A stretch of DNA of 13,247 nucleotides. It comes from a virus. Lineage: Duplodnaviria > Heunggongvirae > Uroviricota > Caudoviricetes. The stretch lies in the IMG/VR virus record IMGVR_UViG_3300023038_000160. One strand, 5' to 3'. The notes beneath the pieces were generated by a model. That model was not told the origin of the DNA. It made no database searches and worked only from the letters and a program-made list of their open reading frames with translations. Below, piece after piece: positions 23 to 13,165 of the stretch; positions within the stretch are counted from its first letter, which is position 1; the number at the start of each line of letters is the position of its first letter. A program made the position numbers and the translations under genes.

Positions 23-98
23 GCCGATATAGCTCAGTTGGTAGAGCAGCGCATTCGTAATGCGAAGGTCGTAGGTTCGACTCCTATTATCGGCACCA
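23..98 (+). tRNA. thrW: tRNA-Thr, anticodon CGT (reads ACG), CCA end encoded
   Basis: 76-nt cloverleaf readable by eye: acceptor GCCGATA/TATCGGC, D-arm GCTC-AGTTGGTA-GAGC, anticodon arm GCGCA-TTCGTAA-TGCGA, T-arm GTAGG-TTCGACT-CCTAT, discriminator A plus CCA. From memory it matches the enterobacterial tRNA-Thr(CGU) gene, a known integration target. Confidence 0.9.
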
Positions 99-2787: not shown

Positions 2788-3230
2788 GGATTACACAGGG
2801 GAATAGATTAAATGGTGTTCTGTTTATACAGGTTTATTTGTTAGATCAACAATTTGGCATTTCTAAACAGATGTTTGAACGTTGCCAAATGTCTTGACAA
2901 CACAAGAAAAGGGCTTGCTATGCCACGCATTACACGAAATAAGGCTGTAAAAACAAAATAAATTTTAAAATTTGCACAAACGAGAAAACTCGTTCAGAAA
3001 CAAGCAGAACAATTTTTAGCCAACAATTTCTGATGGTGTGCTGTAAGCCGCATTACACAAGGCTTTGCGAAAGTGATGTAAAAGTGAAGAAAGTAAGAAT
3101 TGCACTTTTAAGCTACTTTTTCATTGAATTTTTAGTATGGAATTACACAGGAATAAGTTAGGGATATTCTATGATTTACACAGGGAATATAGGGGGATTA
3201 TGGCACACACATAGAAAGGCATTACACAGG
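2788..3230 (+). repeat. Array of same-orientation motif copies, consensus G(C/A)ATTACACAGG(G)
   Basis: Copies at 2790-2799, 3142-3151, 3221-3230 (exact ATTACACAGG) and variants at 2929-2937, 3052-3062, 3174-3185; further variants outside this span at 4353-4364 and 4435-4444. Three copies extend to ...CAGGG(G)AAT. Irregular spacing, all on the + strand. Confidence 0.6.
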
Positions 3231-3276
3231 GTGAGTGCTATGTGACAAATGGATGTAACGGTAGGTCATAGTGAGC

Positions 3277-3416
3277 TACCCCCTATCAAGTCTAACAGGG
3301 GTTTATAAAGAATAATAAACCGATGATACCCCTATCAATATTGATACCCCTATTAACTTTGATATGACTACCCCTATCAAGTCTGATACCCCTACCCCTA
3401 TCAAAACTGATACCCG
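3277..3416 (+). repeat. Iteron cluster, core (G/C)(A/T)TACCCCTATCAA, candidate replication origin
   Basis: Direct repeats at 3277-3294, 3325-3338, 3343-3356, 3368-3380, 3385-3404 and a partial copy at 3409-3416, spaced 18-24 bp (about two helical turns), immediately followed by a very AT-rich tract (3417-3490) that could act as a DNA unwinding element. Confidence 0.65.
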
Positions 3417-3489
3417 ATAAGAATAAGTTAATAAGAATAATTAAATAATAATTAAATAATATTCTTTATATCTATATATATATGATTTT

Positions 3490-3660
3490 TTGCCTTCCGG
3501 CGTTAGCTTCACTCTCTGGCAAGCAGCCTTACTCCGCTACCTTTCGGGCTACGTTGGCTGGCCCCGTTCCGCTCACACCGAAAGCAAAGCGTTACTTTCT
3601 TCGTGTAACTATCGTTGGCGGTAACGCCCACGAAGAAATACTATTGCGCTATGCGCAGTA
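3490..3660. other. GC-rich structured patch inside the AT-rich noncoding region; candidate cos/pac-like packaging site, primosome site or structured ncRNA
   Basis: Sharp local rise in GC; nested hairpin TTCTTCGTG(3596-3604)...CACGAAGAA(3633-3641) with inner CGTT/AACG stem; motifs CCGTTCCGCTC and GTTACTTTCTTCGTGTAACT resemble, from memory, the terminase-binding R elements and adjacent sequence of lambda cosB. Not verified by alignment. Confidence 0.3.
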
Positions 3661-3722
3661 AGAGTAATCACCTAACCAATCATACTGATTGCTTATGTGT
3701 TAACTCTATCTCTCTACCTCTT

Positions 3723-3880
3723 AATTCCACTTCCTACATTCTGTAGTTGTGTAATTACTCGAAGAGAGAGCGGCTAAAGCTCAATTACACTCTGCTTTCC
3801 TCGTGTAATTTCACTAAGCCTCAATACAATTCCACTTCCTACATTTAATAACTCTCGTTATTCTCTGTAGTTGTGTAATT
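3723..3880 (+). repeat. Split direct repeat: AATTCCACTTCCTACATT x2 and CTGTAGTTGTGTAATT x2
   Basis: 18-mer at 3723-3740 and 3828-3845; 16-mer at 3741-3756 and 3865-3880; the two halves are adjacent in copy 1 and separated by a 19-bp insert in copy 2. GTGTAATT also occurs at 3809-3816 and, inverted, at 3782-3789. Confidence 0.55.
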
Positions 3881-4509
3881 GTTTTCGGTGGAAAAGCCAG
3901 AGGCGACACCGAAAGAGAATTCTGATCTTATTAATCTTATCTATCTTAGTTATCTTACTTACTTATCTTACTTTATCTACTTTATTATTAATAATAGCTT
4001 TATAAGCTCTATGTAGCTCTCTGACGCAAGAAACAGAGTTCAGGAAGGGAATCACCTTAGAAAAGTGTTCTTTGCGTCATAATGTGTTTTATGAAGGATT
4101 CAGAGGTGTTTCATAACAGGAATGTATAGAGGATACTTTAGGTAATTAAAAATAAGGGGTCTAAATGCTTCTCTAACAGCATTAAGCAGGGTAGAGAATG
4201 GAAACGCATTGCCTACACATATAAGCTCACTACAGAGCTTTACATAGCGTTTTATAAAGTGACTCTCTATCTTATATCTACAATCACCTTTTCATATACC
4301 TAACAAATACAAAATAAGCCCCTTAAATAAGCCTCTGGCGAGCTAAACAGCCATTACATAAGGGAATGTATTGCTTTTATCAAAATCTCGTTAGAACGCG
4401 TTTTAGAGCGTTTTAGACAATAATGAAGAATAGCACTACACAGGAGAGCACGAATTGTTAAGCAAAAATGTAAGTGCATGAAAAAGATCAGTTTTTTTGT
4501 GAAAAGGTA

Positions 4510-4538
4510 TTGACAAATGTTTCTTTATATGTAATAAT
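4510..4538 (+). promoter_or_regulatory. Sigma70-type promoter for the regulator/replication operon
   Basis: TTGACA (4510-4515), 17-bp spacer, AATAAT (4533-4538) with extended -10 TG at 4530-4531; a ~100-nt leader containing a short hairpin and T-run precedes the first gene. Confidence 0.5.
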
Positions 4539-4648
4539 AGGTATTAGAGGGACAGAAAACATTCTTCTCTAAATAATCAAAATCAATGCACTTTGAAGCC
4601 GTCAGGCTTGCAAGGTGTTTTTTCTTTTAACTGAATAAGGAGTTTTTT

Positions 4649-4837
4649 ATGAAATGGTTCACATCTGAGCACGTCGTTCAGGCATTTAAAAAAGGTGAGT
4701 TATCTCGCCACCAAGTAGTAATGAATCGTAATATGGCAAGGAGTCGAGGTTATCCAGAGCGAGCTGCTTGCTTCAATGAAGCACTCAAGATTATTGATGA
4801 ACTAAGAAAAAATGAAAAAGAATCTGAAACAGAGTAA
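4649..4837 (+). CDS. Small putative DNA-binding regulator (62 aa)
   Basis: Strong RBS AAGGAG 7 nt upstream; first gene after the promoter; basic helical segment LSRHQVVMNRNMARSRG. Family not recognised. Confidence 0.5.
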   Translation: MKWFTSEHVVQAFKKGELSRHQVVMNRNMARSRGYPERAACFNEALKIIDELRKNEKESETE

Positions 4838-4856
4838 AGAAGAGAAGGAGAAAACT

Positions 4857-5027
4857 ATGAGCGAAACTACAGAAAAGAAAAGACAACCACGCACTTGCTT
4901 TCATATTCCTGATGAAGTATTTCAGGTGTTATTTAAAGAAGCCAGAAGTAGACGTATCACTGTCACAGATTACATTCTTGATATGTTGAAAAGAGAGGCT
5001 GAAACACTCTCAAATAAAAGCAAGTGA
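4857..5027 (+). CDS. Ribbon-helix-helix (CopG/Arc-like) DNA-binding protein (56 aa)
   Basis: Start moved from the track's 4812 to the ATG at 4857, which has AAGGAG 7 nt upstream and avoids overlap with the previous gene; RTCFHIPDEVFQVLFKEARSRRITVTDYILDMLK fits a beta-strand followed by two helices. Confidence 0.55.
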   Translation: MSETTEKKRQPRTCFHIPDEVFQVLFKEARSRRITVTDYILDMLKREAETLSNKSK

Positions 5028-5080
5028 TTTTTATCACCATAGTAGCGCCGTAGAGCGTGATTACATCAAGGAGATTTTTA

Positions 5081-5749
5081 ATGATTAAACATACAAAACC
5101 TTTTTTAGGAATAGATTATGACTTACTAGCAATCACTTCCCTGGTGATTAACGGCAAAACAAAAGAAGTAAAACTACACCATAAGATCATTTATTCTTAT
5201 TTGTTAAGTTTATCTGGCACATACCAAAAGGTAACACCATCTTTGAAAGGTATTGGTGAGCGGTTAGGAGTAGGTACAGATCAGACGGTACGCCGTCATA
5301 TCAAAGATCTTGTTTCTTTTGGATGGTTGAAGATTGAGGAAAGGGCAGGTAGCACAAATGCTTATATTGTCCTTCCTTATGAACAAGAAGCCAAAACACA
5401 ACAAGAAGCTACCGTTAAAGCTGTTCCTGAACAGCTTCCCCCTACAGAAGATAATAAAGAGTCTTCTTTTGATGTTCTTGATGATTGGGATGCGCCTTTG
5501 CCGTGGGAGACGGAAGAAACACCTGTTTCATCAAGTGAAAAGGTAGCTAATGATAATGAGGAGGATGTGTTAGAGAATTTTGCCTCTCTTATCTGCCAGC
5601 AGAAAAACACCAGAACAGGAGGGGCATCCTTTATAGAATTTGCAACATCGTTAGCCTATAAGCACAGGTTAAAGCTACCAAATGGTATTGAGGCATATTT
5701 TTCTAAGAATTACCCAAATGTGTATGATGACTTTGATATTCCATTTTAA
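5081..5749 (+). CDS. Winged-helix protein with acidic C-terminal region; candidate iteron-binding replication initiator
   Basis: ATG at 5081 with AAGGAG 8 nt upstream (the track's 5057 start is a GTG without SD); wHTH-like segment SLKGIGERLGVGTDQTVRRHIKDLVSFGWLKIEE; D/E-rich region in the C-terminal half; located downstream of the iteron cluster. The Rep role is inferred from context. Confidence 0.45.
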   Translation: MIKHTKPFLGIDYDLLAITSLVINGKTKEVKLHHKIIYSYLLSLSGTYQKVTPSLKGIGERLGVGTDQTVRRHIKDLVSFGWLKIEERAGSTNAYIVLPYEQEAKTQQEATVKAVPEQLPPTEDNKESSFDVLDDWDAPLPWETEETPVSSSEKVANDNEEDVLENFASLICQQKNTRTGGASFIEFATSLAYKHRLKLPNGIEAYFSKNYPNVYDDFDIPF

Positions 5750-5760
5750 TAAGGAGGGTT

Positions 5761-6039
5761 ATGATTCAATATTTAGTAAAAAATCAAGTAGACAGAATTC
5801 AGTGTAATGACACAGGAAAACGCATCTACGAAACACTTGCTTACCTCTATAAAGGAAAGCCAACACCGCTAAAATATAGCGATGTGTTACACCGAGCAGG
5901 GTGCTCTGAAGATGGTTTAAAATTCTGGCTTAGACAGCTATCAAATTTCGGTGTTATAGAGATTAAAGAATTATCTTTCTCTACATTCAATCTCAAAAGA
6001 CTAGATAAAGAAATAGACTTCATCTATTCCACTCTCTAA
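5761..6039 (+). CDS. Small winged-helix-like protein (92 aa), function unknown
   Basis: Perfect RBS AAGGAGGG directly upstream; segment KYSDVLHRAGCSEDGLKFWLRQLSNFGVIEIKE resembles a wHTH recognition unit. Confidence 0.5.
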   Translation: MIQYLVKNQVDRIQCNDTGKRIYETLAYLYKGKPTPLKYSDVLHRAGCSEDGLKFWLRQLSNFGVIEIKELSFSTFNLKRLDKEIDFIYSTL

Positions 6040-6168
6040 AATCTCTCTATGTAATTAAAATATAAAAGGAAAACATTATTATGATAGTAGCTATGTATTG
6101 GTTATTGTTCTTTCTCACGTTAGAAACATATTTCGGGGTGTTTTCCTTTAAAAGAAAAGGAAAGGTAA

Positions 6169-6576
6169 ATGGCAAAAAGAAAAAACAACGTTGTTAAGAA
6201 AATAGGGGATTCAGCTTCTCTTCTAAGTAAACCTAAATCTATTCTAAGACGCAAAGACTTTAAAGAGCTAGTAACGCTCACCAAGCATAATAGCGCCCCT
6301 GGCGAATGGAAAACAGAGATCATAGAACATTCTCCCTCTGTGCCTTGTGGAGATGAATTTAACGCATTACAAGAAATCTTATCTTCAACACCTGGTGTAT
6401 TCTGGAAACCTAGAAAAAGAAAAGAGTATATTGTTGATAGCTCTGATTTACGCAAATACCAGATTTTAGGATTTGAAGACTATAACCACTACGTCGGTTA
6501 TCTCGCCACCAATGGCCTAAATAATTTAGTTCCTGAATTCCAAATTTTAGATAATGCTGATTATGGAGACTTTTAA
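6169..6576 (+). CDS. Hypothetical protein (135 aa), basic N-terminus
   Basis: RBS AAAGGAAAGG 4-5 nt before ATG; operon context; no family recognised. Confidence 0.5.
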   Translation: MAKRKNNVVKKIGDSASLLSKPKSILRRKDFKELVTLTKHNSAPGEWKTEIIEHSPSVPCGDEFNALQEILSSTPGVFWKPRKRKEYIVDSSDLRKYQILGFEDYNHYVGYLATNGLNNLVPEFQILDNADYGDF

Positions 6577-6577
6577 T

Positions 6578-6916
6578 ATGAACAAAAACACGTATGACAC
6601 AATTTATTCACTAATTAATTATTATGAGGATGATTACCTCCTGCCTTTAAACCGCGCTGAACTTGATGCATATAAAGAAAACACTCCAGCGGCACTAAAT
6701 GAGGCGTTTAAACACTGGGATTTAGCTGTGAATGCCTTTGAGCACCTCTTTAAGCGTGTAGAGATGCTCTGTAAGCGCGAAAACGCATATCTGACAGCGG
6801 ATCAGATATGGGAGTTATCAAACTGGATAGAAGATATTGAATCTGATGTTCGCTATGTAGGAGACGGACTTGTTGAACTAGCTCAACGCTTAGGCGCTAC
6901 TATCACAGAAGAATAA
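6578..6916 (+). CDS. Acidic helical hypothetical protein (112 aa from the ATG at 6578)
   Basis: GGAG 9 nt upstream of the ATG at 6578; the upstream ATGs at 6554 and 6563 lack an SD and overlap the previous gene. No family recognised. Confidence 0.45.
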   Translation: MNKNTYDTIYSLINYYEDDYLLPLNRAELDAYKENTPAALNEAFKHWDLAVNAFEHLFKRVEMLCKRENAYLTADQIWELSNWIEDIESDVRYVGDGLVELAQRLGATITEE

Positions 6917-11830: not shown

Positions 11831-13165
11831 CTATGGCGTTGTTTTACGCCTTAAATTTGATTTTTTATTGATTGATAAGCCTTTCTCTATTTCAGGGTAG
11901 CGTAGAAGCTCAATATATTTTTTAAGCTCTACTGGAGAAGCTGCATTCTTGCTATATGTGCGGAATGTCTCTGTATTGCCGCGTGTATGGCCCAGGAGAA
12001 GGGCGATCCTGTCTTCTGGAATTTGATTTCGATCAAGAAGCTGTGCTACTCCGTGTCTCAGAGAATGAAACACCTTCCTTTCTGTTCCCTTTTCCCCTAA
12101 AGCCTTTCGTTTAGCTCTTGTAAATCTCTGCGTGTGCCACGTAGAGCGTTTACCATCAGCACGCTCTGTAATGCTGGCGTGATAGAACAAAAAGCCATTA
12201 TGAGGCTTTTCACGCAGCGACAACACCAACGGAGTGATAAGGCTATGTACAGGCACAACACGTGCCGCAGCTTTCGTTTTTCCCTGTGTGATTTCAAAAC
12301 ACAGCACACCTTCGATCTCTTTCACATCGTCTATTGTGAGACTTGCTATCTCATTGATCCGCATACCTGTATATAAACCGATAAGACACAAAGCTATCAT
12401 TTCTTTGTTTTCTGCTGAATTACCGGAAAATACTTGCAACACCTGCAATAGCTCTTTGTTAGAAAATGCCTCGTAGCTCTCTCTACTTTGTGCCACATCA
12501 AGCCTATGCCCTCGCCAGGGGGAGAGCGCCCTTTCTGGCGCATCGTGGTAACGTGATGAAGCTAACTCCCATAGCTGGGCCATTGGGCTGATATAATTTG
12601 CAATTGATTGTTGTGAAAGGGTTTTTTGCATGTGTTCAATCCAGCCTGTAACAGTGGTGCGGCTTACATCTTGCAATGCAATATCAGGCTTTTTACGGTA
12701 GGAGAGAAACATCTCTACCGCTTTTCTTGCCTTAGCTAAAGTGGCTGGCTTCTTCTTCGTGCTGTTAATAGTCAGGTAGATTTCAAGAATTTTAAGCAAT
12801 GATGGACACGAAGACGCTGTATCTTGCATTCTGGTAGCTGTTTTGGCGTATTTAGCCTTACTGCGTAACAGTTCCAGCGTGTTCTCTATTGTGCTGTTTA
12901 CAGGAGCGACACTCTCGCGTAAGCAATGGTATTCATCTGCAATCTGATCACGCTTTCTACGTGCAACACGAAGATTACTTGTGTGCAGACTCCTGACAAA
13001 CGTCCTTTTTCCTTCAAAAAAGGGCTGCATATACACAGGCAGCGTGATCCTTAAATAGTAGTTACCGTAAGAATCACAGATTATGTATTGATTGGGCTTG
13101 TATCTCATAAACTCCCCGGCTAAAGTGTCGGAGCGTTTGTAATGTGAAAATTGATTGTAACGCAT
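11831..13165 (-). CDS. Tyrosine recombinase / phage-type integrase (444 aa) with N-terminal arm-binding-like domain
   Basis: Catalytic signature visible in the translation: TGMRINEI (Arg), HSLRHG (His-x-x-Arg), LLGHTRGNTETFRTYS (His and catalytic Tyr). An alternative start at 13108 (MRYKPNQ..., GGGGAG 3 nt upstream) is possible. Codon composition looks more GC-rich than the rest of the island. Confidence 0.85.
   Translation of the reverse strand: MRYNQFSHYKRSDTLAGEFMRYKPNQYIICDSYGNYYLRITLPVYMQPFFEGKRTFVRSLHTSNLRVARRKRDQIADEYHCLRESVAPVNSTIENTLELLRSKAKYAKTATRMQDTASSCPSLLKILEIYLTINSTKKKPATLAKARKAVEMFLSYRKKPDIALQDVSRTTVTGWIEHMQKTLSQQSIANYISPMAQLWELASSRYHDAPERALSPWRGHRLDVAQSRESYEAFSNKELLQVLQVFSGNSAENKEMIALCLIGLYTGMRINEIASLTIDDVKEIEGVLCFEITQGKTKAAARVVPVHSLITPLVLSLREKPHNGFLFYHASITERADGKRSTWHTQRFTRAKRKALGEKGTERKVFHSLRHGVAQLLDRNQIPEDRIALLLGHTRGNTETFRTYSKNAASPVELKKYIELLRYPEIEKGLSINKKSNLRRKTTP

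Follow-up and report, generated by a model that had tools for sequence, protein, structure and literature searches.

Gene content of the operon

This analysis concerns a four-gene operon in a chromosomal island of Escherichia coli that is represented by the virus record IMGVR_UViG_3300023038_000160; the complete stretch of 13,247 nucleotides (nt) is called the window, and all coordinates refer to it (Table 1). The island fits the description of the putative satellites of Stephanstirmvirinae phages, here called candidate helpers, that were reported by Barth et al. (2023), and belongs to the same element family. The operon genes, all on the plus strand, encode proteins of 62, 56, 222 and 92 amino acids (aa), which are referred to as p62, p56, p222 or Rep, and p92. 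The Shine-Dalgarno (SD) motif AAGGAG or AAGGAGG can be read from the sequence 3–7 nt ahead of all four starts, and the gaps between p62 and p56, p56 and p222, and p222 and p92 measure 19, 53 and 11 nt, respectively. For p56, the list of open reading frames (ORFs) also offers a 71-aa form starting from ATG 4812 and overlapping p62, but the 56-aa start is preferred because it carries an SD and matches the annotation of relatives. For p222, a 230-aa form from GTG 5057 is included in the mechanical ORF list. The RefSeq annotation of E. coli strain 1500, which has a copy with 96% identity, contains the same four coding sequences.

In a comparison set of 40 related loci, drawn from genomes of E. coli and from viral contigs, the order of p62, a gene for a ribbon-helix-helix (RHH) protein, rep and p92 was found again, with p92 absent from six of the loci, and the same order occurs in distant relatives, the p62 proteins of which are approximately 35–40% identical. 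The ratio of non-synonymous to synonymous polymorphism (pN/pS) among related loci was 0.07–0.25 for p62, 0–0.09 for the RHH gene, 0–0.44 for the N-domain of Rep and 0.18–0.31 for p92, meaning that all four genes are under purifying selection (pN/pS <0.45). Because the order recurs in related loci and pN/pS is low, the operon is more than a chance arrangement. An earlier interpretation based on the DNA letters alone (the sequence-only reading) had proposed four tightly packed genes with an SD each at 4649–6039, and coordinates, SDs and the order in relatives bear this out.

Table 1. Positions of the operon genes, their control elements and the ends of the island in the window.
Feature	Position	Strand	Description
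p62	4649–4837	+	First operon gene, 62 aa
p56	4857–5027	+	56 aa, RHH type 1 of 3, directly 5' of rep
p222 (Rep)	5081–5749	+	222 aa, predicted initiator
Rep N-domain	5081–5410	+	N-terminal winged helix (HTH_36 / RepA_N-type), type a; predicted origin-binding domain
Rep linker	5411–5449	+	TVKAVPEQLPPTE; domain-swap joint
Rep acidic region and C-domain	5450–5722	+	Type i; no family match
Rep tail	5723–5749	+	YDDFDIPF-stop; resembles E. coli SSB tip MDFDDDIPF
p92	5761–6039	+	92 aa, small winged-helix protein with N-terminal beta hairpin
RHH-rep intergenic region	5024–5080	+	GTGAT-N4-ATCAC over the RHH stop, TAGTAGCGC...GCGTGAT; candidate local control site
Sigma-70 promoter	4510–4538	+	TTGACA, 17 nt, TGtAATAAT; expected start ~4545
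Leader hairpin and T-run	4588–4628	+	GCACTTTGAAGCC-GTCA-GGCTTGCAAGGTG; predicted intrinsic terminator between promoter and p62 SD
Predicted origin	3277–3480		TACCCCTATCAA iterons 3277–3415, then AT-rich tract 3417–3480 (Tandem Repeats Finder (TRF) and direct reading)
Distal ORFs	6169–6916	+	135-aa ORF (6169–6576) and 120-aa ORF; probable distal genes of the unit
thrW (tRNA-Thr)	23–98		One island end
Tyrosine integrase gene	11831–13165	−	Other island end

The predicted initiator p222, its iterons and its C-terminal tail

Residues 34–83 of p222 match the Pfam family HTH_36 (E = 1.1e-7, 32 bits with a cut-off of 25), and residues 27–172 match initiator, lambda-O-like and DnaD-like families in PHROG with E-values between 2e-10 and 5e-8, the initiator and O-like families PHROG 270, 428 and 391 scoring 2–4e-10. 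Across the 40 loci, the N-domain of Rep occurs in five unrelated types (a–e), and all five match HTH_36. Each type has its own class of direct repeats, which sits approximately 1.2–1.4 kb upstream of p62: TACCCCTATCAA with type a, the type of the window, ACAGAATTCTGTTAGACACCCCC with type b, GGTAGGTCACTGTGAGCTAGGG with type c, ACCTAGGAAATGAGTTCCTACCT with type d and GGATGTAACGAT with type e. The cognate class was present in 21 of 21 typed loci with a TRF-detected proximal array, which cover types a–d, while type e was matched to its iterons by motif counts only. In the window, five or six repeats are arranged with a spacing of about two helical turns. The origin and rep are separated by p62 and RHH alleles that recombine freely; RHH types 1 and 2 are mixed in loci of Rep types b and c. 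The match between N-domain and iterons is thus not mere linkage. Judged from these comparisons, a replication role of p222 as iteron-binding winged-helix initiator is well supported; the sequence-only reading had likewise described the 222-aa protein as a Rep-like winged-helix protein with the layout of an iteron-binding initiator. The swappable N-domain would bind the cognate iterons beside the AT-rich tract. Three loci (L004, L019 and L028) contain stacked origins with a- and/or d-type arrays upstream of the cognate array (~1.2–1.6 kb upstream of p62), and in all three the array nearest to the AT-rich tract fits the resident Rep. In two distant relatives (L070 and L071), the Rep slot holds a DEAD-like superfamily 2 helicase of approximately 490 aa with a C-terminal helix-turn-helix (HTH), and p62, RHH and p92 are kept.

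The C-domain of Rep has no family match in profile searches and is swapped for unrelated sequence in types ii and iii. Its very end, …VYDDFDIPF, resembles the tip of E. coli SSB, …MDFDDDIPF. In the nearest E. coli genome, ORFs were translated at matches to DxPF-stop, and DIPF ends were restricted to SSB and a satellite Rep among them; at one further DIPF-stop match (L049) there is no ORF longer than 40 aa. Rep proteins with C-domain types ii or iii end in …YDS[LI]PF or …EEDDFDIPF, so an acidic [ILC]P[FW] end is found on three unrelated C-domains in E. coli, and it recurs on four of five distant winged-HTH Rep proteins, with ends such as …FEDLPF, …FDPIPF and …DEDQCPF. A minimal distant Rep of 141 aa consists of the winged helix, an acidic linker and …DDDLPW. 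The tail is conserved and may act as an effector that mimics the SSB tip. E. coli SSB uses this tip to dock PriA, the chi subunit of the clamp loader, DnaG, RecQ, ExoI and others (PMC5872125, PMC7913777). The sequence-only reading had suggested testing the acidic tail against host DnaB or DnaA. DnaA or DnaB as obvious partners are not supported: no DnaA box is present near the origin, two loose matches elsewhere in the window being at chance level, and we rejected an involvement of DnaA. Since the tail copies the SSB tip of the host, it points to SSB-client proteins as partners. The acidic linker and the C-domain ending in …DDFDIPF-COOH would bring SSB-client replication proteins to the origin, with PriA, DnaG, chi or helper proteins that use host SSB as candidate recruits. 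An SSB of the helper was also considered as model for the tail and rejected; the phages Muut, Inny and Mt1B1_P17 encode neither PF00436 nor gp32-type SSB and contain no ORF ending in DDxPF. Inside rep, a 70-aa ORF in the +1 frame (5334–5546) covers the acidic linker, and many variants leave it uninterrupted. It lacks an SD and probably arises as a by-product of the GAA/GAT-rich codons.

The predicted leader terminator and the small proteins

The near-consensus promoter ahead of p62 reached a score of 11 out of 12 in the promoter scan and has an extended -10 element. TTGACA and the TGn -10 are present in 36 of 36 distinct promoter variants, and the spacer sequence varies. Approximately 45 nt downstream of the predicted transcription start, the RNA folds into the hairpin GCACUUUGAAGCC-GUCA-GGCUUGCAAGGUG followed by U6CU4 (predicted dG -15.2), and the SD of p62 (4637) begins 8 nt past the U-run. 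We compared 14 leader sequence variants from E. coli and distant relatives: each forms one bulged stem of 11–12 bp (dG -12 to -17) with a U-run after it, the loops vary freely and the stems are preserved, including two compensatory pair swaps (U-A to A-U and G-C to U-A) and a paired 1-bp deletion. The element is also present in the distant relatives L071–L076, occurs as a single copy in the window and matches no Rfam family; a simple terminator scanner missed it because the stem is bulged. The kept stems and compensatory changes in the 14 variants are strong comparative evidence for a functional RNA hairpin, which would serve as a promoter-proximal terminator. Transcription would begin at the promoter and mostly stop at the hairpin, giving a leader RNA predicted to be about 80 nt long. 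With most transcripts ending there, the operon genes would be expressed by read-through alone, and read-through is presumably raised upon helper infection. The hairpin was also considered as a site recognized by the helper, and this was rejected because it is absent from the four Stephanstirmvirinae genomes and the phage collection searched.

At its distal end, the transcription unit probably continues beyond p92 through two conserved ORFs of 135 and 120 aa to approximately 6916 and comprises six genes, because the promoter and terminator scan detected no terminator and only weak promoter-like sites between 6039 and 6947, where the next strong promoter lies. The 135-aa ORF (MAKRKNN…FWKPRKRKEY…) has no family match. 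Its homologs come after p92, or after Rep where p92 is missing, in the E. coli loci with the exception of a few deleted ones, and also follow p92 or Rep in distant relatives. Owing to this conservation in nearly all relatives, the 135-aa ORF is a core early gene. Upstream of the promoter, the sequence TGAAAA[AT]GATCA is conserved in all relatives 20–35 nt ahead of the -35 element (window 4470–4500 and the same place in L071–L076); it includes a Dam GATC site and resembles an IHF half-site, and a Dam-family methylase is encoded in two of the islands (L076 and L077). Approximately 100 nt upstream of the promoter (4398–4417), the direct repeat GCGTTTTAGA is present twice, and three times in L019. 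Loci of every RHH and p62 type have kept this repeat, and it is a candidate site for protein binding.

For p62, AlphaFold2 predicts helices at residues 6–15, 20–33 and 36–61 with a predicted local distance difference test (pLDDT) score of 85.7. The protein has no significant PDB match by sequence or fold and none in Pfam or PHROG, and its best matches in BFVD are uncharacterised phage ORFans of approximately 60 aa with template modelling (TM) scores of about 0.8. An exhaustive HMMER search among 1.8 billion proteins yielded 26 representatives, word-based searches with p62 and p92 returned close Escherichia relatives only, and a scan of genome contigs for p62 detected four loci only. Matches to an NCBIfam 'RNA-binding regulator' (E = 0.02, 15 bits with a cut-off of 100, 3 of 13 members) and to the PADLOC candidate system PDC-S05 (E = 0.002) are too weak for an assignment. 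All remote homologs that we examined reside in the same kind of island and are nearly always the first gene behind the promoter, and this lead position holds even where the helicase-HTH protein replaces Rep. Thus, p62 is a three-helix orphan and a family-specific core gene that is independent of the replication protein. The label of regulator that the sequence-only reading had given to p62 is not supported, as the protein has neither a DNA-binding fold nor an informative match. One distant relative (L070) contains two p62 paralogs that head two separate units.

As a single sequence, p56 gave weak matches in Pfam and PHROG, but a profile built from five lineages matched the solved RHH proteins AvtR (4hv0, E = 2.4e-4) and HP0222 (1x93, E = 0.029) from residue 1 onwards. 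The alignment by hhalign with Arc, Mnt and CopG was in register with an E-value of 4e-4, at a probability of only 34%. These profile comparisons confirm the RHH fold (Arc/MetJ/CopG superfamily) at the level of sequence, as the sequence-only reading had anticipated for the 56-aa protein. Three RHH types were distinguished, types 2 and 3 being 46% and 16% identical to type 1, respectively. Types 1 and 2 occur together with N-domains of Rep types a, b, c and e, and type 3 is always found with Rep type d and overlaps the start of rep. In 39 of 39 typed loci and seven of seven distant relatives, the RHH gene lies directly upstream of the initiator in the same operon, and all relatives, even those whose replication protein is of the helicase type, have it between p62 and the replication gene. 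By analogy, p56 is most likely a CopG-like local regulator of rep expression. The RHH-rep intergenic region, a candidate local control site, varies with the RHH type, yet keeps GTGA-N6/7-TCAC and TAGTAGCGC; the 3' junction of the RHH gene is the only DNA that varies with RHH type, and part of the intergenic region is also found ahead of phage odn genes. An 11-nt inverted copy of ATAGTAGCGCC near 6893 was rejected as operator and attributed to chance, as it lies in coding DNA and occurs in nine loci, also with RHH type 3.

The AlphaFold2 model of p92 (pLDDT 89, predicted TM score 0.80) contains strands at residues 2–6 and 12–15, a helix at 17–29, a strand at 35–38, helices at 39–46 and 50–63, and strands at 66–70 and 75–81. 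Foldseek assigned probabilities of 1.0 to CodY-C, ArsR/HlyU, MarR, TubR and AspA (TM scores 0.5–0.6), and the PefI HTH matches at E = 0.22. The model thus confirms the second winged-helix protein of the sequence-only reading, with an additional N-terminal beta hairpin, and p92 may function as a DNA-binding accessory protein. Types i and ii of p92 are 20% identical and follow both the C-domain type of Rep (i with C-domain i in 17 loci, ii with C-domain ii in 14) and the two island lineages, an association that is not separable from linkage. The p92 gene is absent from 50,697 phage records. A dispersed motif resembling ATTACACAGG (window 2788–4444) is present in 3–7 copies upstream in islands with p92 type i and in 1–3 copies in islands with type ii, which instead carry TGTGTTGATTTG repeats; the association of the motif with the p92 type is confounded with the two island lineages.

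A probable satellite of virulent coliphages and its relation to known systems

Profile scans of the window ORFs revealed genes for a lambda gpE-like capsid protein, a tape-measure protein and a Dit-like tail protein on the island and gave no match to terminase or portal. The same scans detected no helicase or primase, in agreement with the absence of primase and helicase noted in the sequence-only reading. In strain 1500, the island is located between proA-thrW and a truncated LysR-family gene adjoining paoD. Among 5426 complete E. coli genomes, 80 contain at least 80% of the window and 103 match at least 80% of positions 4400–6200; at least part of the latter region is matched by 1093 genomes (~20%). 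Barth et al. (2023; NAR Genom Bioinform lqad076, PMC10448857) predicted putative E. coli satellites of Stephanstirmvirinae phages. According to these authors, the satellites are approximately 13 kb long, lie beside a tRNA gene and encode integrase, RepA, decoration, capsid, tape-measure and baseplate proteins, and Stephanstirmvirinae are described as carrying Odn-like nucleases with RepA_N domains, assigned by HHsearch, that match the RepA of the islands. The N-domain of the window Rep corresponds to the Muut-type RepA_N of their paper, which names only RepA within the present operon; an RHH protein, iterons and SSB go unmentioned in it, and p62, p92 and the leader terminator are absent from the passages considered here. 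We found no later experimental work on this satellite family in the literature. Two islands of approximately 7.5 kb at the thiM/TPP-riboswitch site of E. coli Z226-1 (L005) and TUM13936 (L007) share with the window the same origin and p62-RHH-Rep(-p92). They have no capsid or tail genes; in place of these are another integrase, a nuclease of the HNH or GmrSD kind, an HTH regulator and a serine recombinase. They are minimal relatives with the replication module alone in common with the window.

The connection to the candidate helpers is closest in the nucleases. Residues 1–123 of Muut gp154 (L001:4232–5230), an Odn homolog, are approximately 98% identical to residues 1–123 of Rep and are followed in the phage protein by a further winged helix and a T5orf172 nuclease domain. 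At the level of the encoded proteins, this demonstrates that the Rep N-domain was captured by phage nucleases. The match to Muut stops at the Rep linker and that to Inny spans it. Satellites and phage nucleases have this linker in common: in satellites it connects N- and C-domains that are unrelated, in the nucleases the two RepN domains. The second winged helix of Muut gp154 (residues 123–214) is 91% identical to satellite Rep type d (L005, L009, L028 and L036), and the phage Odn homologs in L012, L013 and L014 likewise contain this second domain. The second RepA_N of the nuclease was drawn without a satellite cognate by Barth et al. (2023; PMC10448857), whereas type d is such a cognate, so that each nuclease of the phages would be directed at two types of origin. 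In Muut and Inny, an RHH type 2 gene is present directly upstream of the nuclease gene; its product is identical to the satellite type 2 allele in Muut and differs at the C-terminus only in Inny. Mt1B1_P17 and BI-EHEC have kept only the intergenic region, without the RHH gene. The initiator role of p222 was essentially published already, and the satellite family was predicted in 2023. The present analysis adds the covarying leader terminator, an iteron class for each Rep type, the conserved SSB-tip tail, the satellite cognate of the second phage RepA_N and the wider architecture of p62, RHH, replication gene and p92. The sequence-only reading had overlooked the promoter with its leader terminator, the satellite setting and the phage nucleases with a copied Rep N-domain.

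Taken together, we consider it probable that 4649–6039 is the early replication-and-control operon of an integrated satellite that parasitises large virulent Stephanstirmvirinae coliphages (phi92/phAPEC8-like). Several observations weigh against this interpretation. In hmmscan, Pfam RepA_N (PF06970) was not listed for p222 at E ≤ 1, a search by sequence in PDB with p222 did not find PLE RepA, and the helper phages proposed for this satellite family are candidates. One distant winged-HTH Rep (L076) has no PF tail, and p92, being missing in the six islands mentioned above, is not essential to the module. No 10-mer specific to RHH type 1 or 2 occurs outside the gene and its junctions, and the same promoter variants stand ahead of all three RHH types, so CopG-style autorepression at the operon promoter is not supported. 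Finally, termination and read-through at the leader rest on prediction. A more far-reaching proposal, which we regard as tentative and somewhat doubtful when taken as a whole, is that the satellite initiator acts as an origin-bound decoy of host SSB and is coupled to a leader-terminator gate that is opened on helper infection. The iteron-reading winged helix would tether …DFDIPF-COOH to double-stranded origin DNA and deliver clients without DnaA, a helicase loader or an enzyme of the satellite. These clients could be PriA with the primosome, DnaG, chi or replisome proteins of the helper with an evolved ability to dock on host SSB, and the 141-aa Rep may represent the bare form of the device. 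The conserved leader terminator would hold the operon off, and p62 perhaps acts on the RNA.

Alternatively, the operon could be a purely transcriptional module, in which p222 is a MarR- or LexA-like island repressor, the upstream repeats are its operators and no replication takes place. MarR winged helices are indeed the nearest solved sequences in PDB (E = 3e-4), RefSeq labels relatives as 'transcriptional regulator' or 'LexA family', and HTH_36 is a generic HTH model. However, direct repeats with this number and spacing that abut an AT-rich tract have the architecture of an origin rather than of an operator, and the PHROG matches to initiator, O-like and DnaD-like families reach 1e-8 to 1e-10 over 100–146 residues. 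Moreover, the helicase-HTH protein occupies the Rep slot in distant relatives, phages fuse the Rep domain to a nuclease, just as the PLE RepA domain is part of ICP1 Odn, and an SSB-like tail would be senseless on a repressor, which together make this explanation very unlikely. The leader hairpin could also be the 3' end of a free-standing small RNA (sRNA) transcribed from the 4510 promoter, with the operon being read from another start. The succession of a first short hairpin, an A/U-rich single strand and a terminator hairpin with U-tail resembles Hfq-type sRNAs, and the stem sequence is conserved beyond the needs of a plain terminator, but no other promoter-like site exists between the U-run (4628) and the SD of p62 (4637). 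We regard this as unlikely, although an sRNA and a gate are compatible, as a terminated leader can also act in trans.

Two further explanations concern the small proteins. The genes for p62 and p56 are tiny and adjacent, one of them encodes an RHH protein, and the RHH profile weakly touches MazE7 and other RHH antitoxins (E = 0.28–0.8), which, together with the PDC-S05 match of p62 (16 bits), might suggest a toxin-antitoxin or abortive-infection pair with the RHH protein as antitoxin that stabilizes the island or defends the cell. This is highly improbable: the p62 types (A, B and C) assort freely with the RHH types (1, 2 and 3), which argues against a cognate pair, p62 has no toxin-like fold or family, lytic phages retain the RHH gene without p62, and the second p62 paralog of L070 directly precedes a p92 homolog with no RHH gene in between. 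The sequence-only reading had considered the RHH fold typical of excisionase-like functions, and no Xis or AlpA-like gene was recognized in the window, while recombination directionality factors are often small DNA-bending proteins, so that the RHH protein or p92 could fill this place. However, islands with the same integrase (99% identity) carry either RHH type 1 or RHH type 3, two proteins with 16% identity. The integrase of the thiM site is unrelated and likewise goes with RHH type 1, and p92 type i is combined with three different integrases. The RHH type is thus independent of the integrase type, and the RHH gene is also present in the lytic phages Muut and Inny, in which no integrase is annotated near the locus; an excisionase role, which is not upheld for the RHH protein, can hardly be expected for either protein.

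For satellites of virulent phages, mechanistic detail comes mainly from Vibrio PLE. Because the present family occurs at least partly in about one fifth of complete E. coli genomes and the candidate helpers infect K-12, it offers an accessible second satellite model. Within the satellite, it is this operon that has to detect the helper and initiate replication, and phages have plundered it for Rep N-domains for their nuclease and for the RHH gene. If the leader terminator is an induction gate, it provides a concrete handle on the sensing of a lytic helper, and if the SSB-tip interpretation is true, the tail represents a compact route for an initiator to recruit a replisome, of which we found no prior description. 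Together with the matching iterons, the alleles form a natural specificity set of five types of Rep N-domain, three of RHH protein and two of p92.

In lambda PR'-tR' with Q and in the PLE leader of satellite P4, a promoter-proximal terminator must be overcome for operon expression. The present operon shares with them a strong, constitutive-looking promoter followed by a terminator within 100 nt, but nothing resembling a Q, N or put factor or site was identified here, and the hairpin is absent from the candidate helper genomes. In plasmid pMV158, CopG represses its own operon promoter and RepB is a rolling-circle nuclease. The small RHH gene directly upstream of, and co-transcribed with, the initiator gene resembles copG-repB, whereas no operator was found at the promoter, three unrelated RHH types share the promoter variants, p222 is predicted to be an iteron-binding winged helix, and p62 is present as an additional gene ahead of the RHH gene. 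Like the SSB tip, the Rep tail consists of an acidic run and I/L-P-F at the extreme C-terminus of a flexible acidic linker, but it is attached to a putative sequence-specific initiator for double-stranded DNA instead of an OB-fold protein for single-stranded DNA.

In lambda O/ori-lambda and DnaD-like organisers, an N-terminal winged helix binds iterons and the C-terminal part recruits host replication proteins, a division of labor that may apply to p222 as well, which matches the O-like and DnaD-like PHROG families at 4e-10 to 5e-8. Unlike lambda O, p222 is not accompanied by a P-like helicase loader gene, its C-terminal domain is unrelated, and its iterons lie 1.7 kb upstream and not within the gene. 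The closest parallel in organization is found in V. cholerae, where the RepA/ori of PLE is confronted with the origin-directed nuclease Odn of phage ICP1 (Barth et al., 2020, PMC7145576; 2021, PMC8263062). Host, helper lineage and operon partners differ from PLE, there is no detectable sequence relation to PLE RepA, and Rep is shorter and carries the SSB-like tip. Nevertheless, in both systems the satellite initiator has an exchangeable N-terminal domain for iteron binding and no helicase of its own, and in both a helper phage, or candidate helper in the present case, has fused this initiator domain to a T5orf172 nuclease.

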